29,783 nt of DNA. Source: Nitrososphaeraceae archaeon (lineage in GTDB: Archaea > Thermoproteota > Nitrososphaeria > Nitrososphaerales > Nitrososphaeraceae). The stretch is taken from assembly GCA_035250975.1 (NCBI GenBank), contig DATFEP010000091.1, positions 1 through 29,783 on the forward strand. Reading direction: 5' to 3'. Positions 2,186 to 29,745 of this stretch are shown here, in pieces. Made by a program: the position numbers and the translations under genes. Under the pieces are notes generated by a model. The model made no database searches. It saw nothing but the letters and a program-made list of their open reading frames with translations, and was not told where the DNA came from. Position 1 is the first letter of the stretch. Every line of letters begins with the position of its first letter.

Positions 2186-4456
2186 ATGTCAAATAATAAA
2201 TACATAGAATATAGTAATCTGTCGGAATCAGAAAATTATATAGATCATCCTCTAATCAAAAAAAAATCAATTGATCATCGATTGTATCAAACCAATATTG
2301 TTAATTCGTCACGGGGAAAAAATTCAATGGTCATTCTTCCAACTTCTTTAGGAAAAACAATAATTTCAGCTCTGTTATCTGCGGATGTCCTTTATAATTT
2401 TAAAACTATGAGGGTTCTAGTCATGGCTCCAACGAGACCATTAGTATTACAGCATATGTTCTCGTTTTCTTCTGTACTTAAAATATTAAACAATCAAAAA
2501 ATCTTTGTTACCGGTCAAATTCCACCATCTACAAGAAAGTTGATATGGGATAATAAAAATATCAGATTGATATTTTCAACTCCTGAGATAATAAGAAATG
2601 ATCTTTTTGAAAGCCGTCTATCTCTAGATGATTTTGGATTGGTGGTTTTTGATGAAGCTCATAGAGTAGTGAAAGACTATGCATATACATATATTGCAAA
2701 AAAATATCTAGAACAGTCACTAAATCCAGTCATTCTAGCTATGACTGCAAGTCCTGGATCAGATGGTATCAGAATCGACCAAATCTGTGAACATCTTAGT
2801 ATTGAACATATCGAGTATCGAAATGAAGAGGATTCTGATGTAAAACCATATGTCAATCCAATCGATTTGAGTTGGGAATTAATAGATCTATCATGCGATT
2901 ATAAAAATATTGTACATCTATTTCGCGAAATATTAAAAGAAAAATTAAGATGGTTGGTTTATCGTGGATTAATTCAAAAAAAGAATATTGACTATATATT
3001 TAAAAGTGATTTATTAGAACTTGGAAAAGTTCTCCAACGAAATCTACAATTTTCGGTAACTGAAGAAAAAGGTCAGTTATACTCTGCTTTGTTAAATCAG
3101 TCATCTGCTCTTTCTTTAATGTACTGCATAGAATTAATCGAGAGTCAAGGTCCGTATTCTCTTGAAAATTTTATCAAGAGAATGGAATCTAGTGAGGGAA
3201 AAGCACATTCCATACTCTTAAAAGATCCGAGAATGGATGAAATAAAAAAGAAACTTGTAAATATTTCAGACCATCCAAAAATTAAATACATCATAGATTT
3301 ATTAGATCAAAATAAATTTGTTTCCCATATAAAGGATTCAAATAATACAAATCTTTCATTAGATTCGAATTCTAAAATTTTAATTTTTACTCACTATAGA
3401 GATACAGCTACACATATTGTTGATGTATTAAAACAAAGAAAAATAAGATCTTGTAGATTTGTTGGACAATCGAGCAAAAATAATGATATAGGCATGAAAC
3501 AGGATGAGCAATCCAATGTATTAGATTCATTTAGAAGAGGAGAATTTAATATATTGATAGCTACATCAATTGCAGAAGAGGGACTAGATATCCCTGAAGT
3601 GGATTTAGTTATTTTTTATGAACCTGTTGCAAGTGAAATAAGACATATACAAAGAAAAGGAAGAACTGGCCGAAGGTCAAAAGGTAAAGTTATAATACTT
3701 GCATCAAAAGATTCTGTCGATATGCATTTACTATATGCAAGTAAAAGACGCATAGAGAAAATGAGAAATATATTCAATACAAAAAAAACCTCACTAAAAC
3801 CAATGAAACGAAGTCAAATATCCTCAACTCCATTAACTAAAAAAGAATTAGAATCACTTGAAGAATTACTTGAAAAAGAAAAAACTAATTTAGGTACTGA
3901 AGACTATGATTTCAAATTACAAAATTACAACTTATTAGCAAAAATGAAAGAAAATAAATTTGATGACAAATATTTATACAATAAACAATCAAGATTTGAT
4001 CGAACTATTAATCCAAAAAATAAATCTAAAAATAATAATAAATTGATAGATAAAACAATTAGAAATATTTATGAATTGTTGGTAAAAGAGAAAATAAATA
4101 AAAAAACTCAATTTGATCTAAGATATTTGTCCGATCATTTTTCTATAGACTATAAGATATTGTTAGACGCAATTGATCAACTCCAGAAAGAGCAAATAAT
4201 AACAGTAAAAAATAATTCTATTATTTTTAATAAGATACCAAATTCTAAAGAACAAAAATATATGATCTATGTTGAAAAAATATTGCCAGGGAAAGCATCT
4301 GTCCTGGTAAACGGAAGATGGCATGCTGTATTAAATTATTATGATTATGACGGGCCACGTAATATTTTGAAAAAAGGTTCCGAATTTATGGCAAGAGCAG
4401 ATCTTTATAATAATGAAGGATCATTTTGTATTAGAATAAAAGAAGTAATTCTGTAG
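2186..4456 (+). CDS. Hef/FANCM/Mph1-family DEAH helicase with an atypical C-terminal extension
   Basis: RLYQ, LPTSLGKT, APTRPLVLQH, DEAHR, AMTASPG, FVGQ, ATSIAEEGLDIP, QRKGRTGR. No ERKxxxD ERCC4 nuclease motif seen. Confidence 0.88.
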   Translation: MSNNKYIEYSNLSESENYIDHPLIKKKSIDHRLYQTNIVNSSRGKNSMVILPTSLGKTIISALLSADVLYNFKTMRVLVMAPTRPLVLQHMFSFSSVLKILNNQKIFVTGQIPPSTRKLIWDNKNIRLIFSTPEIIRNDLFESRLSLDDFGLVVFDEAHRVVKDYAYTYIAKKYLEQSLNPVILAMTASPGSDGIRIDQICEHLSIEHIEYRNEEDSDVKPYVNPIDLSWELIDLSCDYKNIVHLFREILKEKLRWLVYRGLIQKKNIDYIFKSDLLELGKVLQRNLQFSVTEEKGQLYSALLNQSSALSLMYCIELIESQGPYSLENFIKRMESSEGKAHSILLKDPRMDEIKKKLVNISDHPKIKYIIDLLDQNKFVSHIKDSNNTNLSLDSNSKILIFTHYRDTATHIVDVLKQRKIRSCRFVGQSSKNNDIGMKQDEQSNVLDSFRRGEFNILIATSIAEEGLDIPEVDLVIFYEPVASEIRHIQRKGRTGRRSKGKVIILASKDSVDMHLLYASKRRIEKMRNIFNTKKTSLKPMKRSQISSTPLTKKELESLEELLEKEKTNLGTEDYDFKLQNYNLLAKMKENKFDDKYLYNKQSRFDRTINPKNKSKNNNKLIDKTIRNIYELLVKEKINKKTQFDLRYLSDHFSIDYKILLDAIDQLQKEQIITVKNNSIIFNKIPNSKEQKYMIYVEKILPGKASVLVNGRWHAVLNYYDYDGPRNILKKGSEFMARADLYNNEGSFCIRIKEVIL

Positions 4457-4607
4457 ATCTTGGTATATTATAATGTCCTTAGTAAATATTATAAAATGAT
4501 TTTTATATTATTTATTGAAGATTTCATTATTGATAAACGACATATATATCTTATGTGTATCAAAAAATTTTGAATTTTAATGCTTCTACTAATGAAAGAA
4601 TATCTTT

Positions 4608-5459
4608 CTAGGAAACAATAATGCCTTTAAATTTATCAGATATTTCACTTTGTGTCAAGTTAGAACCAACTGCCGTGATTTTAGCATTTATTGAATATTC
4701 TCCATCTGGATTATTACTTCTAACATGATATGCTCCTATAATAGGATCGTTAAAATCTGGACCATATACCAAGATATCATCAAGATTGCTTGAAATAAGT
4801 TCGATCTGAAGATCGTTTCCTAGGGCAACAAAGGTCTTTGAAAAAATTGTCTTTAACTTCTTGTCATCATGCAAGGTAATATTGTAACTTAATGGCACAG
4901 TTTTTTCAAAGTTAATGGAAGTTGGTTGGAAATCTAGTAAAATTCTATCATTTTTGGTAGCATTAAAAACCCAATCGTATTGAGAATTATCCATTAAACC
5001 CATGTCAGATCCAGAATTCAATTTTATGTTATTACCTTCCTTAAAAGAATCACTTACATAAATAGAACCTATCATCCAAGGATGAATCTCACAATGATAT
5101 GCAACTCTTCCCAGCGTATCAAAAGTATATTGCAATGAACCAGAATAAGGTATAATACCTGAATTGAACATTTTTCCTGAATTCGGTGATCCTGGCGCCC
5201 CGCTAGTTACAGTATGTATTGCTTCTGGATCGTAATTAAACCATGCTACAGTAGTCCCCACTGGTATGGCGATATTTAGGGGATAAAAATGTTGAAATTT
5301 GTAACTAATACCCGAACCTGTGGTTATATCCACCACATAGGTAGGCAGTACCTTGTGGGAGGTTGGAGGTGGGACCGTTCCCAGTTCTCCGAATATCTCT
5401 CCATTTGATAAGAATAAGCTACAGATGATTCCTAAAAATAGAAATAAAAATATTGTCAA
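4608..5459 (-). CDS. Exported blue-copper (plastocyanin/azurin-like cupredoxin) domain protein
   Basis: Hydrophobic N-terminus; type-1 Cu ligands in IHTVTSG and YHCEIHPWM; extra C-terminal domain of about 145 aa. Confidence 0.88.
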   Translation of the reverse strand: MTIFLFLFLGIICSLFLSNGEIFGELGTVPPPTSHKVLPTYVVDITTGSGISYKFQHFYPLNIAIPVGTTVAWFNYDPEAIHTVTSGAPGSPNSGKMFNSGIIPYSGSLQYTFDTLGRVAYHCEIHPWMIGSIYVSDSFKEGNNIKLNSGSDMGLMDNSQYDWVFNATKNDRILLDFQPTSINFEKTVPLSYNITLHDDKKLKTIFSKTFVALGNDLQIELISSNLDDILVYGPDFNDPIIGAYHVRSNNPDGEYSINAKITAVGSNLTQSEISDKFKGIIVS

Positions 5460-5597
5460 TAAATAAACTTGTCTCTAGGTCTTAATATCAAGTATGTTTA
5501 CACTATATTCATTTGCAATCATCTGCAACGTCTGTAATAGTGATTCTAGGAGAAGAAATATTATTTAAAATACAAAGGAGATTAGATATCTATCAAA

Positions 5598-5628
5598 CTT
5601 GAACTTCTAGAATCTTGAACTTCTAGAA
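5598..5628. repeat. Tandem duplication CTTGAACTTCTAGAA x2 (16-bp period)
   Basis: Copies at 5598-5612 and 5614-5628, upstream of the cupredoxin gene. Confidence 0.8.
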
Positions 5629-6096
5629 GAATAAATAACCTTCATAATTCCATAAATTATATTTGATTAAAATCAATTCAATAAATTCAAAAATAGAATA
5701 AAAATGTCTTAAAATGATAAGTGTTATGTCACTTTGGTCACAATAAATTTTAAATGAGAATTTGTTATTACCAAAATATATTCAGTAATTTTAACGAAAA
5801 AAGGATTATTATTGTTTTTAACAAATGGTTTTGGATATGTCAGTTAGGGAAACAATATGAAGAACACAATTATTACATTAACTGCACTATTAGGATCATA
5901 TTCATATAAATCTTGATTGCATAAAGTTACATTCTATACTTTTTTTATTTGGAGTAAGTTTGGCTAATCTTACGTATCAATTCTCAATGTAGTTTCCTAT
6001 TTTTTGCATAAATAGCTTTAACTTTGTATTATATATTTTGCTACAAACTAATATGAGTCATTAAAGAATTGATGTAGCAAATAAATTCTAGACAAT

Positions 6097-6110
6097 GTTC
6101 TAAAACGTAA
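6097..6110 (+). repeat. Left att-like direct repeat GTTCTAAAACGTAA
   Basis: Identical to 11174-11187; similarity continues imperfectly (AGTTTGTCAC vs GTTTCAC). Confidence 0.8.
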
Positions 6111-6197
6111 AGTTTGTCACGTAAATATGTACCCCTAACACAAGTAAATAGACATAAAATGATATAATAATTTTATTGGTATTTTAAGTTCACAATT

Positions 6198-6207
6198 CTT
6201 ATAAATA
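6198..6207 (+). promoter_or_regulatory. TATA box for the leaderless RHH gene at 6233
   Basis: CTTATAAATA ending about 26 nt before the TTG start. Confidence 0.45.
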
Positions 6208-6232
6208 AGAGTATTGTTTTTATTTTCAAACA

Positions 6233-6391
6233 TTGAACAACAAATATGTTTTTAATAATTTGGCATTAAAACCGCATGTTTATGAACGAGTTAAAAAACG
6301 TGGAATATTCGGAGAATCCTTTTCAGACATAATAGAAAAAATGTTGGATAAATTAGAAGGTATAGAACTGGAGACTGAATTACAAATATGA
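6233..6391 (+). CDS. Small RHH/CopG-like or antitoxin-like DNA-binding protein (52 aa)
   Basis: Manual translation from TTG: MNNKYVFNNLALKPHVYERVKKRGIFGESFSDIIEKMLDKLEGIELETELQI. Strand-helix-GESFSDII-helix pattern typical of archaeal RHH proteins. Not in the ORF track. Confidence 0.75.
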   Translation: MNNKYVFNNLALKPHVYERVKKRGIFGESFSDIIEKMLDKLEGIELETELQI

Positions 6392-6406
6392 TAATAATAG
6401 TAGAAG

Positions 6407-6505
6407 GCTTGGCCTGTCCGATAACCAGCCAAGCAAGAATCGTAATCCCCGCAGACTACGACAGACGAACGACGGACACCACAGCAACCAACCCGTTCAG
6501 GAGGT
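6407..6505 (+). promoter_or_regulatory. GC-rich structured region (three hairpins) ending in Shine-Dalgarno AGGAGGT
   Basis: Stems GCTTGGC/GCCAAGC (6407-6434), TCGTAATC/GACTACGA (6440-6461), GAACG/CGTTC (6467-6498); AGGAGGT at 6499-6505, ATG at 6516. Confidence 0.5.
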
Positions 6506-6515
6506 TATCTGATAG

Positions 6516-6617
6516 ATGAACAGTGCGAATTTTTATCTAACAAGTCTTTGTACGTCATTTTACATCATGCGAGAATTAGGCATGAAGAAATTTGCAAAAT
6601 ATACAAAAATTTCGTAA
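6516..6617 (+). CDS. Possible 33-aa peptide or stub of a truncated gene
   Basis: MNSANFYLTSLCTSFYIMRELGMKKFAKYTKIS, with a strong SD 10 nt upstream. Confidence 0.3.
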   Translation: MNSANFYLTSLCTSFYIMRELGMKKFAKYTKIS

Positions 6618-6627
6618 ATAATCATCA

Positions 6628-6741
6628 TTATGCTATCATCTCATTCTGCAGTATCTGGAATCGACAAACTGACATTATATTCTGTGATTTTCCCATACTA
6701 TCATAAAAATCCAGTAGTCTTCTGATAATATCATCAAGATT
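6628..6741 (-). pseudogene. Remnant of an RHH-like paralog
   Basis: Reads DDIIRRLLDFYDSMGK..., resembling TYDDIIIKILDFYEEK in 7040..7255; no intact 5' part. Confidence 0.5.
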
Positions 6742-6776
6742 CCTACATTAGAGAAACCGGATAATAAAAACTACAA

Positions 6777-6795
6777 AGGTTATACGTTATAACCT
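6777..6795. promoter_or_regulatory. Inverted repeat AGGTTATA-cgt-TATAACCT (candidate operator)
   Basis: Perfect 8-bp arms; another half-site AGGTTATA at 6883-6890. Confidence 0.4.
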
Positions 6796-7039
6796 ACTTT
6801 TTATTTATTTACTACTGTTCAAACACTTACAATTATTTTCTTCGTGAAAGTTATCCACTAAATGGGCGTGAAGATTCTCCATAGGTTATATCATACACTT
6901 CTTTTTTTCTCTCTGCTTTAGATTTAATAAGGTTAGTGCCGCAAAAATACATTATAGAGATTTTAGTGTTAACTATAATATACCATTACAGTTAAGTGTT
7001 AGTATTTAAGTGTTCAAGGATAGAGAACTTTTTGGGTAA

Positions 7040-7255
7040 CTAATAATAAGACTTATCTTGATTTTTTTCTTCGTAGAAGTCTAATATCTTGATAATTATG
7101 TCGTCATAGGTAGTAACTTTATTATTGCGTAAGTCTTCTGGTCCGTAGTGAAATTCATTAAAATGATTCCTTAATCTCTGGTATGTCTGTTCGTTTAATT
7201 GAATAACCCTAACCTGGTGCACTTTATGAAGACTATCTAGTTTTCTGGTTCCCAT
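7040..7255 (-). CDS. RHH-like small DNA-binding protein
   Basis: VRVIQLNEQTYQRL ... TYDDIIIKILDFYE: strand-helix-helix pattern with an insertion between the helices. Confidence 0.7.
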   Translation of the reverse strand: MGTRKLDSLHKVHQVRVIQLNEQTYQRLRNHFNEFHYGPEDLRNNKVTTYDDIIIKILDFYEEKNQDKSYY

Positions 7256-7452
7256 AACATAACAACGATTGAAATAAGAAAAGGTTAGGATAAATATTTT
7301 TAGTTACTTGCTGCAGTACTAGGATTTCACTTTGTACCTTAACATGATTTTCTATTGTTTTTATTGTCAATAATTCAGAATGATAGAATATTATAATTTT
7401 AGATAATGTTCCTTCCAACCTTAGATATATTAAAATCGTATTCAACAATGTA

Positions 7453-7947
7453 ATGAGCAACAAAAAGATAATGTTTGCTTCTATACTGGGAGCAATACTA
7501 GCAACAGGCTTACTGGCTCTAAACCCATCAACGATTACAAACGCACAGGCAGTACCATACGGTACAGATTATGACAATAGATATTCCTACGGTGATCAAT
7601 ACGGGGACCAGTACGATAACAGCAGATACAACGATAATAGATATGGATATGATAACTATGATAATAGTTATTATCCTGAACCTAAAAAAGATAAAAAGAT
7701 TGGAAATCAGCAAGAAATAAAATGTTTCAATAAGAACCTTAACGTAAACGGTATAGATATCAACCAGATACCTCAAGACCCTACTCCCTGGCTAGCAGCA
7801 AATGAAGGAGGAACAGCAGACGCAGCAAATACAGAAAATGGTAACGGATTTGGAGATAGAATAAACTTCGAAAAGAATCTAGTAAATATATGCGTCAACC
7901 TCAACTTTAACAACCAAGAAAGAATACCTTTTGATATCATATCATAG
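7453..7947 (+). CDS. Secreted protein with Tyr/Asp/Gly/Asn low-complexity repeats and a Cys-bracketed C-terminal domain
   Basis: Signal peptide ending near AQA; YGDQYGDQYDNSRYNDNRYGYDNYDNSYY; KCFNKNLNVNG...NICVNLN. T-tract at about 7962-7976 follows. Confidence 0.8.
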   Translation: MSNKKIMFASILGAILATGLLALNPSTITNAQAVPYGTDYDNRYSYGDQYGDQYDNSRYNDNRYGYDNYDNSYYPEPKKDKKIGNQQEIKCFNKNLNVNGIDINQIPQDPTPWLAANEGGTADAANTENGNGFGDRINFEKNLVNICVNLNFNNQERIPFDIIS

Positions 7948-8067
7948 GACTAAATTTATCTATCTTTCTTTTTTTTGTTAATTATTTAATTCATTCCTCT
8001 AGAAACATTACTACTCCCAGCAATAACGTAAGTCGCAGAAGATTTTGTCTTGATTTATTATATACAA

Positions 8068-8547
8068 TTATGCTGCGACACTACTACCACTTGGAATATA
8101 GGTACCAGCAGCACTATTAGAAGTAGAAGATTTGTTTCTGATAAACTCGAACTTTCTTTTTACTTCGTCCCTCTTACCTTCCGGAACTTCATAGTAAACC
8201 AACAAGTCAAGTAATCCCGTTCTAGTATCTCTATCCCTCTGGGAACCGTGTACTTTCCCTCCTGTGTCTATTACAATGTCAGATAATACCTCATATTGTT
8301 TTTGAACCTGTAATATTGAACCCTGCAGTAACTCAAATGAATTAGACATTTTGGGTTTTGGACTCCAGGGTTTTTTATTATAATATGTAGAAGTTGTACT
8401 AGTTGGTTTGTTCGTGGAAACTCTATTAGGACATACATGCTTTTTCTGTCCAAGTATTTCCCAGTATTCACTTACCGAAGTATTCCAATAAATCCTGGTA
8501 TTACACCCATAACCGCATACTTTAGGATAAATGTTATTTGGACTCAA
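8068..8547 (-). CDS. Hypothetical protein with N-terminal Zn-ribbon-like motif
   Basis: CGYGC-x-IYW ... KKHVC, then a Thr/Pro linker and a small alpha/beta domain. TTG start. Confidence 0.7.
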   Translation of the reverse strand: MSPNNIYPKVCGYGCNTRIYWNTSVSEYWEILGQKKHVCPNRVSTNKPTSTTSTYYNKKPWSPKPKMSNSFELLQGSILQVQKQYEVLSDIVIDTGGKVHGSQRDRDTRTGLLDLLVYYEVPEGKRDEVKRKFEFIRNKSSTSNSAAGTYIPSGSSVAA

Positions 8548-8690
8548 TTTATTTAATTTAAATTAATTTCTCTCGTAGTCTTATTCGAAATTTCTGGTAT
8601 TCTTCTTTAGTAACAATCCTGTTCTTGACAAGATATTGCGTTTCTTCTTCATTTCTTCTTGATTATCTCTTATTATTTCTGCAATAAGTT

Positions 8691-8888
8691 TCAAAATATC
8701 TTCCTTTGTGAACGATCACGTCTAATGTATTCACCATTACCATTAAAAACATCATCTCTAGAACGTGCTATCCATATCCAACGTCCTTTTTCATCAGCAT
8801 ACACTCTTTTTTTATACTCATTATCGTTGTCGTCATGGACGATTATTTCAAACAAATTCTCATGATCATCATCAATATCGTCTGTCAT
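8691..8888 (-). CDS. Small acidic hypothetical protein, translationally coupled to the upstream RHH gene
   Basis: ATG at 8888 overlaps the RHH stop codon (ATGA); MTDDIDDDHENLFEIIVHDD... Confidence 0.55.
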   Translation of the reverse strand: MTDDIDDDHENLFEIIVHDDNDNEYKKRVYADEKGRWIWIARSRDDVFNGNGEYIRRDRSQRKIF

Positions 8889-9040
8889 TTCTTCTGTTTC
8901 TCCCAATAGAAATGCACTAGCTTCCAGATAACGTCTTCATAACTCTCTCCCTTCTTACCCAAATCCTTCAAGGCATTGCGTAAGTCCTCAGACACCTGAA
9001 TAGTTGATCGTTTTTCCAAATCTTGATTTTGTATTAACAT
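8885..9040 (-). CDS. RHH/CopG-like repressor (51 aa)
   Basis: Manual translation MLIQNQDLEKRSTIQVSEDLRNALKDLGKKGESYEDVIWKLVHFYWEKQKK, with TIQVS..L..L..GESYEDVI signature. Not in the ORF track. Confidence 0.82.
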   Translation of the reverse strand: MLIQNQDLEKRSTIQVSEDLRNALKDLGKKGESYEDVIWKLVHFYWEKQKK

Positions 9041-9087
9041 TGTATCTATTATATTTATGCTATACTATAAGTGTTATATAATCTATA

Positions 9088-9103
9088 TAACTATATATAG
9101 TTA
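9088..9103. promoter_or_regulatory. Perfect 16-bp palindrome TAACTATATATAGTTA between divergent RHH and SWIM genes
   Basis: Self-complementary; near the centre of the 109-bp divergent intergenic region, which also has TATA-like motifs. Confidence 0.55.
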
Positions 9104-9149
9104 CCCATAATAATTATATAAATGCATATAAGTAATAGAATATTACAAT

Positions 9150-9542
9150 ATGAAACAAAAAATAGAAGTTTCTAAACATATAGCTGAATCAAAAGAGAAG
9201 AACAGACGAGAAGGCCGGGGTAGAGTCCTGGCCCTCTCCAGACATGTATACCAACTGCGAGGAAAGGATACCTTTTATGTAGAATCCGAATCCTGCGACA
9301 ATAGATACTACTTCGTACGCTTTAACTCTTCCTTTGCTGGAGGGTTCTGCAGTTGCAAAGACTACGATTCTAACCGTTCCGACTTATGCAAACATCAACA
9401 TACCGTATTCTAAGGAATAAAGTACAATGCAATCCAGGAAGTTGATAAACTACCGGAAGAGGTACGCACTAAGAGCGAACCTGCAGAGGATAAACCTACT
9501 ATAGAATGCAAATGTTGGGAATATGACGAATATTCTTTTTAA
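9150..9542 (+). pseudogene. SWIM zinc-finger protein interrupted by one in-frame TAA (9411-9413)
   Basis: FYVES...YFV...CSCKDY...CKH SWIM motif; frame continues past the TAA as GIKYNAIQEVDKLPEE...WEYDEYSF-TAA (9542). Confidence 0.75.
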
Positions 9543-9566
9543 CTGGGGAGGAGATGATAAAAATGA

Positions 9567-9656
9567 GTGATAGAAGTCGGGCAATGTGTGAATTGTGGAC
9601 ATGAGTTCCTGCAGCATCCAGGCGGACAATGTTATCTTTGCGACTGCGTAAAATGA
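9567..9656 (+). CDS. Mini zinc-finger peptide (29 aa; 5' end possibly frameshifted)
   Basis: (GTG)IEVGQCVNCGHEFLQHPGGQCYLCDCVK; GGAGGAG at 9547-9553 precedes out-of-frame ATGs at 9554 and 9563. Confidence 0.5.
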   Translation: MIEVGQCVNCGHEFLQHPGGQCYLCDCVK

Positions 9657-9659
9657 GAA

Positions 9660-9860
9660 TTGAAGCAGCAGCAGCAGTATAAGCAGGAAATAAAAGACTT
9701 TCAGAAAATATATGAATCCCTAAATTTCTATTTTATAAAACTTGTATCAAAACAATCAGAAGATTTAAAATATCAAATGATACTCAAAGATTTAGGAGAC
9801 GTGAAAGACAGACTCTATGCAGTGAGACTGCAGATAGAGGAGTATTTCCAGAACCAATAA
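9660..9860 (+). CDS. Small helical/coiled-coil hypothetical protein
   Basis: 66-aa ORF, co-oriented and closely spaced after the Zn-finger ORF. Confidence 0.5.
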   Translation: MKQQQQYKQEIKDFQKIYESLNFYFIKLVSKQSEDLKYQMILKDLGDVKDRLYAVRLQIEEYFQNQ

Positions 9861-9914
9861 GGAAAGTAATAATTATTCATTTTTTTCCTAATCCAAATTT
9901 TCTTTTTCGTCTTT

Positions 9915-10061
9915 CTAATTTTCTATTTTCTCTTCTGTTCGTTCTTTGTTGTACTCCTGTTCTTCTTCTTTACTGTGTTGATAGTCGTCAAAATTGGGTT
10001 CCTCTGAAGTTTCTACCGGATAAAATTCCATGAACTCTTTAGCAGGCATATACATACCCAT
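9915..10061 (-). CDS. Acidic 48-aa ORF, possibly the detached tail of the integrase
   Basis: MGMYMPAKEFMEFYPVETSEEPNFDDY...; same frame as 10083..10400, separated only by the TGA. Confidence 0.3.
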   Translation of the reverse strand: MGMYMPAKEFMEFYPVETSEEPNFDDYQHSKEEEQEYNKERTEEKIEN

Positions 10062-10082
10062 CTTTTCAAAGTGATTGACAAG

Positions 10083-11155
10083 TCATTTCTTTTGATATTC
10101 CATCTTGGCCCCGTTGTACTTCTGCATTGACTCGATAATGAAGTCAACCTGTTCCTGTAGTCTTTGCATCTGGCTATCTCTCTCAATAATCTGTTTTTGT
10201 AGTTGGTAATCCTTGACTGATACTTCTTTCTTTAGTTCTGTATTTTCCTTTTGTAACCTGTTCGACTCGTCTATCGTTAACAAGTCAACGACTTTCATGT
10301 ATTCCTGCAGTAATACGTCATCCTCACTCCTGTCATAATTGTAGTCGAGTCCCTGGCCTACCTTATGTCCCATCAACTTTTCCTTTATTGTATGGTTCAC
10401 GTTTACATCCGGATTATTGCGGTATGTATTGACATCTTTCTAAAGACATGTACACACATCGTACGCTTTCTTATCCTTCCTGATTCGGCATGTTTTCCCG
10501 ACTTTATTACAGTCTTACTTTCAATATTGGCGTCATATCTCAGGCGTTCCAGCATTTTTTGAAGTACCTTTGAAGAGTAAAATCCCTTCATTTTCACTCC
10601 ATAAAGAGTTTGTTCTATGTCTGATAAACGGTAAATCGTCTGTAAGTTTTTCTCCTTCCTTTTCTGTACGATGTTTAAAATAAATGTCTATCATCGAAGC
10701 ACATTCAGAAGTACAAAATGTTACATAGTCGTCAAGTCCGCATGTTCAAGTAGTAATTTAATCTGTTCATCAGTATAGAGTTCGTCATCTACTACACGTC
10801 TGGGTTTACCCTTCAGTTTCGTTATTTGTTTCCAGTTGGGAATATGTTCTACACCATTTATTTCATAAAATAACTTTATTGCTGCAGTTGATAGTTTTAT
10901 ACTGGAATAGGAAACCTTATCCTTCCCTACTCTGTGACTGATATATTCCTTTATTGCGTGAAACTTCTCCTCATCCGAAATCTCCAATAACTGTTCATAT
11001 CTATCAAAATCACAGAAATTTAGGAAACCTTTCAAATGATATCCATACGTAACTTTGCTTTCATCGCTATGGATTGAATTCATAAAGTTCTCGTAAGGCG
11101 TATTTTTGGACTTGTAAGACGCTTTTTGCAACGCATTTTTATACGAAATCAGCAT
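10083..11155 (-). pseudogene. Tyrosine recombinase/integrase, fragmented
   Basis: Core-binding N-terminal part (10721..11155); out-of-frame segment DYVTFCTSECASMIDIYFKHR..EGEKLTDDLPFIR; HVFRK (HxxR) in 10403..10597; LMGH...LDYNY plus coiled-coil tail in 10083..10400. Box I with the first catalytic Arg appears deleted after HADL. Confidence 0.88.
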
Positions 11156-11173
11156 ATTAAAGGTACAACTTCG

Positions 11174-11187
11174 GTTCTAAAACGTAA
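11174..11187 (+). repeat. Right att-like direct repeat GTTCTAAAACGTAA
   Basis: Identical to 6097-6110; 18 nt separate it from the integrase ATG at 11155. Confidence 0.8.
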
Positions 11188-11394
11188 GTTTCACAAACAA
11201 CTTGACAATTATAGACATTTTAACAGTCATAAAAAAAGATAATAATAATAATGTATTGTAAAGAATAGTATGGAAGCTGTGGCGAAACATCATGAAAATA
11301 TTCTTCGTATGAAAAAAGTAGTTAACGATATGCCAGAGAAATGGAACAATCTTTTTTTTGAAAATCTTACAACTCACAACCTAATAAGTTATAA

Positions 11395-12423
11395 GTGAAT
11401 GATTTGGAACGAGATTCTAACCAGTTACTTTTAAGAGATAATTTTGACAGAATTGCTAGAAAACTGAGAATTTCTGTGACAGACAAGTGTAATATGAAAT
11501 GTATCTATTGTATGCCTCAACATAATGTTAAATGGTTCGAAGACAAAGAAATTCTCAGTTTTCAAGAAATTGTAAGAATCACATCAATTTTTGCAGATTT
11601 AGGTATCAATAAAATAAGAATAACTGGAGGAGAACCACTGCTTAGGCCATGCCTAGAAAATCTTATTACTGATCTAAAACAGATCAGCAAAATAAAAACT
11701 ATCAGTATGACAACAAATGGTATGCTATTAGAAGAAAAAATAGATCAATTGTCATCTGCTGGAATTACAAGCCTAAATATTAGTCTTGATACATTCAGTG
11801 AAGAGCGATTTAGAACACTTAACGGTATAGCTAATTTGAACCGGGTTATAAAAGGAATTCAAAAGGCTAGGGATTTAGGATTAAAAATAAAAATCAATAC
11901 AGTAGTAATACGAAATTGGAATGATGACGAAATAATAAATTTCGCAAAATTTGCAAGAGACTACAACGTACTTTTAAGGTTTATTGAATTTATGCCGCTT
12001 GATGGGACAGGTATTTGGAACAATGATCTGGTAGTAAGCAAGAACGAGATAATAAACAAAATTAGTTCCCATTTTATGGATATATTTCCTTTAAAGGATA
12101 GCAACTATCATTGTTCTGACCCCGAGACTATCTATAATTTCGCTGACGGTAAAGGACAAATCGGATTTATTTCTTCTATTACCGAGCCCTTTTGCAACAA
12201 TTGTGATAGGGTAAGATTAACATCTGATGGAAAATTTCTTACTTGTCTATTTGATCAAAAAGGATATGATTTAAAATCGTTGATACGTAGTGGTAAGACA
12301 GACAAAGATATAATGGATTATATATATATGTGTCAAAAAAAGAAACCAGAGGGAATAGTAGAATTAATTAGACTAAATGCACTTAAACCAACCTTAAACC
12401 TTATGCATACAATAGGAGGTTAA
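11395..12423 (+). CDS. moaA: GTP 3',8-cyclase (molybdenum cofactor biosynthesis, radical SAM)
   Basis: LRISVTDKCNMKCIYC, IRITGGEP, RFIEFMP, FCNNCDRVRLT...TCL, C-terminal IGG. Confidence 0.96.
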   Translation: MNDLERDSNQLLLRDNFDRIARKLRISVTDKCNMKCIYCMPQHNVKWFEDKEILSFQEIVRITSIFADLGINKIRITGGEPLLRPCLENLITDLKQISKIKTISMTTNGMLLEEKIDQLSSAGITSLNISLDTFSEERFRTLNGIANLNRVIKGIQKARDLGLKIKINTVVIRNWNDDEIINFAKFARDYNVLLRFIEFMPLDGTGIWNNDLVVSKNEIINKISSHFMDIFPLKDSNYHCSDPETIYNFADGKGQIGFISSITEPFCNNCDRVRLTSDGKFLTCLFDQKGYDLKSLIRSGKTDKDIMDYIYMCQKKKPEGIVELIRLNALKPTLNLMHTIGG

Positions 12424-12991
12424 CTCAAATCGATTCTAGCAAAAAAAATCTACATTTAACTATAAAATTGTATGAAGTTTAAGAGAACAAATAGCTTGCG
12501 ACGCTTTGGTTATTTATATAAACCTTACAATTTCATTACGACATCTGAAAAAAACAAAGTCTGATAAACAATGGATAAAAAATGTAAAAATTATTGAATA
12601 AATCAGACCCTTACAACAAAATGTTCAATGTATCAAACAAGATAGATATATTATGTCTACCACTGAACACGCCTTTATCAGGTAACTCCAGCTAATATTG
12701 TTCTTATAAAAAACGGGGGAAACCACCAAGGGAAATATAATAGAAGCTGCGGAAATATGATCTGTTCTATGTACTAAGTCTGAGGTCTTCTTTTAGGTTA
12801 AAATTCACAAATCATAGTTGTGCAAAAAAGAACTATAACCGGTTATTTTTATCATCCTTGTAGATTTTATATTCATATATTTAGCATCTTTTTATAATGA
12901 AATTTAAATTTCCTGAAATTTGTCAGTCATTTTTAATATTATATTCTTGTATTAGCAATTCTTAATAATAATTACAATTATTTTATAATTT

Positions 12992-13339
12992 ATGAAAATG
13001 GTAGAAGAAGGATTCTTATTTACAAAATTAAGTTTTGTTACCACATTTATTATATTTACATTTTTGATAAATTCTATTTCCGAAGCATTTGGTTTAATTC
13101 AAGATAATGTTAGTCTAATGATGCCAGGACATAATATGACATTTGGTTCGTCACTTGATAATGCTAAGATGCATTTGATGGAAGCAGTTATGGATTTAGA
13201 GGAAGGAAATATCAATGGGGCACTAATACAATTAAACTTGACACAGGATGGAATCAAAATGCATGAAAAGCAGATGATGGATATGATGAACATGATAAGA
13301 ACAATGGAAAAGGTGGGTATCATGAATTTTACTAAGTAG
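12992..13339 (+). CDS. Exported Met/His-rich helical protein
   Basis: Signal-like N-terminus; AKMHLMEAVMDL...GALIQLNL helical hairpin; 16 Met in 115 aa. Confidence 0.75.
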   Translation: MKMVEEGFLFTKLSFVTTFIIFTFLINSISEAFGLIQDNVSLMMPGHNMTFGSSLDNAKMHLMEAVMDLEEGNINGALIQLNLTQDGIKMHEKQMMDMMNMIRTMEKVGIMNFTK

Positions 13340-24024: not shown

Positions 24025-24207
24025 ATGTCATCGAATTTAGAAAAAGTATATCAATGTGAGGCCTGTGACATGAATTTTAGTACAGAAGAAGAACAAAATA
24101 AACATAGAAATGAGAAACATTCTAATGACAACATGTCATCCAATTTAGAAAAAGCATATCAATGTGAGGCCTGTGACGTGGACCTTAGCACAGATGAATA
24201 TAAATGA
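24025..24207 (+). CDS. Small C2H2 zinc-finger protein with internal tandem duplication
   Basis: YQCEACDMNFSTEEEQNKHRNEKH, then a second MSSNLEKAYQCEACD copy (108-nt period) truncated before the His ligands. Confidence 0.7.
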   Translation: MSSNLEKVYQCEACDMNFSTEEEQNKHRNEKHSNDNMSSNLEKAYQCEACDVDLSTDEYK

Positions 24208-29470: not shown

Positions 29471-29655
29471 AAAAGTAAAAGAATTAATAGGTTAAGGACG
29501 AGTTTGATGTTACCCCTATTAACATTCTCTTTAACAGAGATGCTGATCTATGTTACTGTCTGCAGGAGGCATCCAGCAGGGAAGCAGTAGAAAAACATCA
29601 TTCAAAATTCAATTTGAAATGTGATTGGATCACAGAAGTAACGATGGCTAAAAAA

Positions 29656-29745
29656 TAAAATAAAATAAAATAAAATAAAATAAAATAAAATAAAATAAAA
29701 TAAAATAAAATAAAATAAAATAAAATAAAATAAAATAAAATAAAA
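29656..29745 (+). repeat. Perfect pentanucleotide microsatellite (TAAAA)18
   Basis: 18 uninterrupted TAAAA units counted directly. Confidence 0.95.

Follow-up and report, generated by a model that had tools for sequence, protein, structure and literature searches.

The window analysed here is a stretch of 29,783 nucleotides (nt) from a Nitrososphaeraceae archaeon, and comprises one entire contig (DATFEP010000091.1, termed C21) of its source genome assembly (GCA_035250975.1, termed G000). Between a cupredoxin-like gene and moaA it carries a cluster of small open reading frames (ORFs), and this insert of 5.1 kb (6111–11173) is very probably what is left, after decay by deletion, of a site-specifically integrated element, now immobile, of the cryptic class known in Thaumarchaeota. 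An earlier account of this DNA, made from the sequence alone and called here the original prediction, had described an integrated element at an intergenic attachment (att) site that is not a tRNA gene. This is borne out by an empty site that joins exactly at the terminal repeat. The cluster is best annotated as dead mobile DNA, and not as the minimal mobile family that was also proposed. The remnant belongs to a class that is already known, and the larger family from which it derives is the more interesting object.

The empty site and the ends of the element

The insert is bounded by two exact copies of the 14-mer GTTCTAAAACGTAA on the + strand, located at 6097–6110 and 11174–11187. The original prediction had placed both correctly, together with the distance of 18 nt from the right copy to the ATG (11155) of the minus-strand integrase ORF. 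The full repeat is 18 nt in length (GTTCTAAAACGTAAGTTT). The right copy, attR (11174–11191, + strand), is an exact 18-nt core, assigned from the sequence and by comparison of junctions. The left copy, attL (6097–6115, + strand), comprises the 14-nt core, a 1-nt insertion (A, at position 6111) and GTTT. Both copies of the 18-mer are exact in the sister genome G016, including that at the junction equivalent to attL (L015 17788, the same as L016 788), and the empty site described below holds just one. The left terminal sequence of the element (6116–6160, + strand) is conserved in two G016 elements, termed Y and Z; window positions 6108–6160 align with L014 18697–18645 at 81% identity.

Taken alone the repeat is weak evidence, and is not beyond chance (about 5%). 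A pattern search of the window for the 14-mer, allowing up to two mismatches, gave two matches where 0.46 are expected, and at least two were found in 5 of 100 shuffled sequences. The window contains 36 maximal exact direct-repeat pairs of at least 14 nt, 18 of them outside simple-sequence arrays, and genome-wide 1716 of 33,296 60-nt anchors (5.2%) have a 14-mer partner 0.5–20 kb away. A search of the whole G000 assembly (2,488,707 bases in 91 contigs), which the original prediction had suggested, found the 14-mer at the two window positions only. The proposed check of base composition gave a G+C content of 0.340 for the insert and 0.306 for the genome, so that the insert ranks within the highest 4.8% among 859 equal-sized windows.

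The decisive evidence comes from a metagenome locus (L031) that corresponds to the site before integration. Here the sequence equivalent to window 4081–6115 (91% identity) is joined directly to that equivalent to 11174–13135 (91%) through one copy of the core, as the original prediction had anticipated. The flanks of L031 are 96–98.7% identical to those of a second related genome, G019, to which the locus is therefore closest. Assembler word sizes normally exceed 18 nt; the repeat is shorter than this, and its collapse during assembly is therefore an unlikely source of L031. Because both flanks are joined through a single copy of the core, integration is proven, and the element was inserted at the 18-nt intergenic core by an integrase. 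The insert thus has three marks of an integrated mobile genetic element (iMGE): it is bounded by direct repeats, it has an integrase gene (here a pseudogene) beside the att site, and a relative shows the empty site. No tRNA gene was detected in the window by ARAGORN and no Rfam family at gathering score, in agreement with the earlier observation that no tRNA lies at either end.

L031 was found by scanning metagenome contigs with the 18-mer, which returned 19 loci comprising this one empty site, one occupied attR (L036) and 17 unrelated sequences. A scan of metagenomes with a 27-nt pattern of attR plus flank, having one degenerate position, gave no match. The occupied attR is also present in contigs of runs X2–X5 that are ~98% identical to the window, for example in a contig of 2899 nt spanning 8441–11340; the stretch 5804–6619 is left uncovered by the contigs of X2 and X3. 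The contigs of X2–X5 contain no joint across 6097–11187 and no circle junction, though contigs cannot show rare forms. The original prediction had looked to related genomes for the empty site, and none was found among 25 species genomes of the genus. In the more distant members the cupredoxin-like gene and moaA are not on one contig, so that these are unusable as empty sites. Within the 25 genomes the core (with up to two mismatches) occurs at five places, in G000, G016 and G019 only, and always at these junctions.

The two ends also carry a 6-nt inverted match, with TGTACC near the left end (6116–6133) and GGTACA near the right end (11153–11173). The pair is conserved in the G016 elements, and in G019 the right end reads GTTACA and the left end has been lost. 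In the reconstructed attP the two hexamers would flank the core asymmetrically, and they are possible candidates for integrase binding sites.

The parent family in related genomes

The source genome has close relatives in G016 and G019 alone, whose flanks are 92–94% identical to those of the window. Element Y of G016 (13,374 nt; G016:C10:1488315–1501688, L014) adjoins moaA, from which it is separated by an exact attR; element Z (11,644 nt; G016:C10:1520805–1532448, L016) lies on the side of the cupredoxin-like gene, with an exact attL between the two. Y shares the right end of the window element (...GGTACAACTTCG followed by the core and the moaA flank), and Z shares the left junction (flank, core and left end). 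The Y and Z junctions thus provide independent evidence that the core marks the exact limit of the element at either end.

The Y integrase is intact. It is a protein of 443 amino acids (aa), with matches to Pfam Phage_integrase (PF00589, 32.1 bits with a cut-off of 27.1) and to the integrase family PHROG_1 (3.3e-16). The catalytic motifs occur in the expected order: R (in GMRVG, residue 146), HxxR (277–280), H (in LMGH) and Y (in SYFRG). The integrase family has 63 homologues, and a scan of IMG/VR with the Y integrase gave no relative. Y also encodes a SWIM-like protein, an RHH protein, a 589-aa P-loop ATPase, a 474-aa homologue of the large terminase (PHROG_2, 4.2e-22; the Z homologue scores 1.5e-18) and a 360-aa protein with a PriX primase domain (5.8e-9). 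In the parent family a small gene precedes the large terminase, in the position of a small-terminase gene, and there are several RHH and Zn-ribbon proteins. Z has the same modules as Y, with the integrase and ATPase genes each split in two. G019 has a version of ~7.9 kb at the same locus as the window element, from which attL, 244 nt of the flank and the left end of the element have been deleted. Here the primase is intact and the integrase ORF is without the catalytic tyrosine. All four elements that were compared, those of G000 and G019 together with Y and Z, keep the module of SWIM-like, Zn-ribbon and integrase genes beside attR.

Searches of Y and Z with Pfam and PHROGs, whose reach does not extend to distant folds, gave no portal, capsid or tail family. 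A 226-aa protein of Y was tried as a capsid candidate; its single-sequence fold has a predicted local distance difference test score (pLDDT) of 36.5, too low for use, and the ESM Atlas gave no usable match to it. Elsewhere in G000 there is a homologue of the primase (60% identity; C56:40900–42808) and one of the ATPase (50%; C57:530–1846), both probably left by other elements of this family.

Each of the G016 elements has one junction at the core seen in the window, and the other at a related sequence ending TTATAGATT. The host flanks of these second junctions are contiguous in contig C73 of G000, at 2471/2473 (region 2440–2500, 92–93% identity), and by this alignment the C73 site is the empty second attB. 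Both attB sequences contain ACGTAA. Y and Z lie ~31 kb apart in inverted orientation. The simplest reading is that G016 had acquired two related elements at the two att sites in opposite orientation, and that homologous recombination between them would have inverted the intervening ~31 kb and made two chimeras. This implies one family with two att specificities.

Decay of the window copy

The extent of decay was examined by tblastn of 31 proteins from the Y, Z and G019 elements against the window. Thirteen of the 31 have matches; the terminase, primase, ATPase and 15 others have none. Relatives with the same termini are larger and carry the replication and packaging genes, so that the large-terminase, PriX primase and ATPase genes are absent from the window through deletion and not by design.

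The integrase gene (9960–11155, − strand) is a pseudogene when aligned with the intact 443-aa Y protein. The minus-strand ORF at 10721–11155 encodes the N-terminal SAM-like domain of the integrase (Pfam PF13495, E 4.9e-5, below the curated cut-off), and residues 1–134 align with Y at 84% identity. The following 49 residues (135–183), which include GMRVG with the first catalytic Arg, have been removed by a deletion of 147 nt. The remainder is split over two reading frames and contains stops. A sharp break in BLAST identity at 10727/10730 was considered as a chimeric junction and rejected; it is the 147-nt deletion, with identity of 82–90% on either side. The arrangement is the classical one, in which the integrase gene is left whole on integration, with later deletion and pseudogenisation. 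We infer that the window copy cannot excise by itself. Elsewhere in G000 no cognate integrase was found, the best other matches being 28–29% identical (C88 and C2), and since none is closer than this, rescue in trans is unlikely in this genome.

Two further genes of the attR-proximal module are broken. The SWIM-like gene (9150–9539, + strand) has an in-frame stop at 9411–9413; its ORF ends at 9413 (87 aa), and without change of frame the alignment with the 129-aa protein of Y, itself a weak match to the SWIM family of Pfam (E 0.0069), continues to 9539. The Zn-ribbon gene (9567–9860, + strand), encoding 97 aa in Z and G019, is aligned in frame over its full length at 89–93% identity and is interrupted by a TGA at 9654–9656. 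Position 9656 is G (giving TGG) in the contigs of runs X2–X5. A 112-aa protein encoded intact in G019 is represented at 8561–8906 (− strand) by a pseudogene, its tblastn match being distributed over frames −1, −3 and −2. In runs X2, X3 and X4, which represent strains ~98% identical to the window, the sequence to the left of 6686 is unlike that of the window, and a loose end of 30 nt at 6686, when reverse-complemented, reads as the start of a gene like that for a 199-aa protein of Z. This suggests a further deletion junction in the window copy at 6686.

The genes that survive intact include one for a 164-aa protein with a signal-peptide-like N-terminus (7453–7947, + strand), 58% identical to the 226-aa protein of Y. 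Its family is restricted to Nitrososphaeraceae and is multi-copy, with 110 unnamed database homologues and no Pfam domain. Elsewhere in G000 there are 11 tblastn matches to it on nine contigs (C32, C56, C26, C74, C51 (twice), C35, C55, C34 and C54), and the copy on C56 adjoins the PriX-primase homologue. A second intact gene (8068–8547, − strand) encodes a Cys-rich hypothetical protein of 159 aa, cargo that is absent from Y and Z. It has 607 homologues at E ≤ 0.001, all of them unnamed or 'hypothetical', and the best 120 listed are 54–98% identical; there is no Pfam or PHROG match. It is a strongly conserved small protein carried in a remnant, with no counterpart in the G016 elements. The few homologues of the 164-aa and 159-aa proteins with a named source come from metagenome-assembled genomes of Nitrososphaeraceae or Nitrososphaerales. 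The third intact gene (8885–9040, − strand) encodes a 51-aa DUF7557 protein that is RHH/Arc-like (Pfam PF24434, E 3.7e-7, above the cut-off) and 96% identical to the G019 copy. These surviving ORFs, for the 164-aa secreted-type, the 159-aa Cys-rich and the small RHH proteins, are leftover cargo. Two small RHH-like ORFs are intact as well, one of 52 aa that is weakly like an RHH/VapB antitoxin (6233–6391, + strand; Pfam PF02697, E 0.0019, below the cut-off), and one of 71 aa (7040–7255, − strand) related to an 83-aa protein of Y (tblastn with Y_RHH83, 32% identity, E 6.6e-8).

Mechanism, history and alternative explanations

From these comparisons the course of events can be set out. The tyrosine integrase was of the classical (non-suicidal) kind, its gene lying at the right end of the element and reading inward, and it recombined attP with the 18-nt attB GTTCTAAAACGTAAGTTT by crossover within the core. 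This attB lay between the divergently oriented cupredoxin-like gene and moaA, and was duplicated as attL and attR on integration. The parent family is 12–13 kb in length, with the PriX primase, ATPase and terminase in addition to the attR-proximal module of SWIM-like, Zn-ribbon and integrase genes. In G000 the half responsible for replication and packaging has been deleted, and most of the remaining genes are broken. In the parent family, replication might be carried out by the PriX-domain primase and the ATPase, and the terminase might serve packaging into capsids of other origin; this is speculative.

Some observations weigh against decay of an immobile remnant. attL and attR are nearly intact, leaving room for rescue in trans by an incoming relative. 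The lesions are found in a metagenome-assembled contig, so that single frameshifts could be errors of assembly. Yet no damage is seen in the flanking genes (moaA, cupredoxin-like and helicase), which indicates local decay and not poor assembly, and with the 147-nt deletion and the two nonsense substitutions this disfavours assembly error as the explanation. Lastly, the DNA of the element is more diverged among G000, G016 and G019 (78–90% identity per 100-nt block in the integrase region, 68–82% in the interior) than four-fold degenerate sites of the flanking moaA and cupredoxin-like genes, which are 89–94% identical among the three genomes. The history has thus not been a simple single ancestral insertion followed by decay. 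The window integrase has a tail like that of Z and not Y, and between G019 and Z the primases are 94% identical. Repeated integration at one attB, or recombination among co-resident relatives, seems slightly preferable to a single ancestral insertion.

The original prediction had seen in the window a small mobile family defined by integrase, RHH, SWIM and Zn-ribbon modules, possibly a satellite or a minimal integrative element. On this reading the element would be functional, with these proteins as its whole kit. Retention of the attR-adjacent module in all four elements and the nearly intact att sites are in keeping with this. However, the integrase lacks residues 135–183 and is frameshifted, the SWIM-like and Zn-ribbon genes contain in-frame stops, and the comparison with X2–X4 suggests a further deletion at 6686. 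Moreover, the replication and packaging genes have been lost by deletion, and the relatives with identical termini (13.4 and 11.6 kb) have primase, ATPase and terminase, with the ~7.9 kb version in G019 as a further larger relative. A functional element of this kind is very improbable, and a small mobile family so defined does not stand. The remnant could instead be non-autonomous and remain open to excision and transfer in trans, through the integrase of an incoming or co-resident family member. This would fit with the survival of both att cores and the conserved terminal sequences, and PMC8371274 discusses, for suicidal integrases, how an archaeal element with a defective integrase can be excised by a related integrase from outside. 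On the other side stand the 1-nt insertion within the 18-nt core of attL, the distance of the nearest G000 integrase (28–29% identity) and the lack of a joint across 6097–11187 in the contigs of four runs, subject to the limit on rare forms given above. Continuing mobility in trans is improbable, if less so than a functional minimal element.

We give almost no credence to a variable intergenic islet that was never mobile and is flanked by a chance 14-nt repeat. Such repeats are not rare, as 5.2% of 60-nt anchors have an exact 14-mer partner within 20 kb and there are 17 other non-simple pairs of at least 14 nt in the window. Yet L031 has one copy of the core exactly at the predicted joint, there is an integrase homologue at the end of the insert, and in G016 these termini are found again at a second att site, which is empty in C73 of G000. 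A bolder proposal, which we consider unlikely although less remote than these, is that the parent family is a capsid-less integrative element with its own terminase, primase and ATPase, a thaumarchaeal counterpart of the phage satellites that would package itself into the heads of a tailed virus infecting ammonia oxidisers of the soil and acting as its helper. On this view variants of the integrase would have switched between the two related ACGTAA cores, and the intact 164-aa and 159-aa genes of the window fossil would have been kept for the host. We return to the decayed, immobile remnant as the reading that best accounts for the insert.

Several other identities were rejected. In an SSV-type element with a suicidal integrase the gene is split by integration; here all the integrase fragments lie within 9960–11155, with the core 18 nt upstream of the start codon. 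A provirus of a tailed virus (Caudoviricetes) was discarded, as searches with Pfam and PHROGs, which do not reach distant folds, gave no terminase, portal, capsid or tail gene in the window and a large-terminase homologue only in Y and Z. A casposon or transposon was likewise set aside: there is no Pfam match to Cas1 or a transposase, the integrase is of the tyrosine type, and the only inverted match near the ends is 6 nt long.

Flanking genes and other features of the window

The gene to the right of the insert is moaA (11395–12423, + strand; Pfam Radical_SAM 7.8e-35 and Mob_synth_C 3.1e-33), 96–97% identical in G016 and G019. The gene on the left (4608–5459, − strand) is an ORF of 283 aa, 94% identical in G019, that is cupredoxin-like by motif only. 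The original prediction had named both neighbours; moaA is confirmed by Pfam, while the left gene has no Pfam match even at an E value of 1. Its cupredoxin label is taken from a putative C-x2-H-x2-M copper motif.

A tandem duplication of 15/16 nt, with CTTGAACTTCTAGAA occurring twice, is present at 5598–5628 in the intergenic sequence that precedes attL. Two exact copies of a 22-nt direct repeat, 108 nt apart, occur at 24048–24069 and 24156–24177. At the end of the contig there is an (AAAAT)n simple repeat of ~91 nt (29652–29742), which probably caused the break in assembly there.

Comparison with known systems

An 18-nt intergenic attB, defined with its empty site, is now established as a target of integration among these soil Nitrososphaeraceae, and the remnant points to a family of 12–13 kb, with integrase, terminase, PriX primase and ATPase, that uses at least two att specificities. 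In the survey by Krupovic et al. 2019 (PMC6563490) the targets of 68 mapped thaumarchaeal iMGEs comprise 39 tRNA genes, 15 intergenic sequences and 14 protein-coding genes. With 15 of 68 intergenic, a target other than tRNA is not unusual. The att sites there have a median length of 17 bp and a minimum of 8, the cryptic elements range from 2.6 to 98 kb, and tandem integrations occur. The window element is like these in its end-located tyrosine integrase, short direct-repeat att site, intergenic target and size, and unlike them in being a pseudogenised remnant. In the single Nitrosocosmicus genome included there are two elements, each located in a tRNA gene. Four supplement files of that paper contain no occurrence of the first 11 nt of the att core, and a literature search of titles and abstracts found no prior description of the element family in Nitrosocosmicus.

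Some of the cryptic elements carry terminase genes and no other virion gene (NitKor-E1, and NitAQ6f-E5 in the supplement), and such terminase-bearing capsid-less elements were termed enigmatic (PMC6563490). By gene content the parent family is like NitKor-E1, having a large terminase with a small gene upstream and no other recognisable head or tail gene. More members of this kind with mapped ends may help to settle what such elements are.

The integrase is similar to the classical type II integrases of pNOB8 and SNJ2, the gene being unsplit by integration with the att core located 18 nt upstream of the start. It differs from the pNOB8 type, for which box II is given as YxxR in PMC8371274, in that box II of the Y integrase reads HxxR. 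SSV-type elements are also archaeal and integrative, and the fragmented integrase ORF of the window could pass for a split into int(N) and int(C). Unlike that type, however, the fragments are contiguous at one end and are parted by frameshifts and a deletion, with no att site inside the gene.

In joining an integrase, a primase module and packaging genes within 12–13 kb, with no recognisable capsid gene, the parent family resembles phage satellites like the phage-inducible chromosomal islands (PICIs), by analogy only. Typical PICIs are not known to carry a large terminase, and the parent family, as known from its gene content, differs from PICI-like satellites in carrying a homologue of this protein.

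The arrangement in G016, where Y and Z each have one junction of each att site, has a parallel in Thermococcus kodakarensis, in which a chromosomal inversion arose by homologous recombination between related elements in opposite orientation (PMC8371274). It differs from the Thermococcus case in that the host is a thaumarchaeon and the integrases are classical and not suicidal, and the inversion belongs to the sister genome and not to the window.

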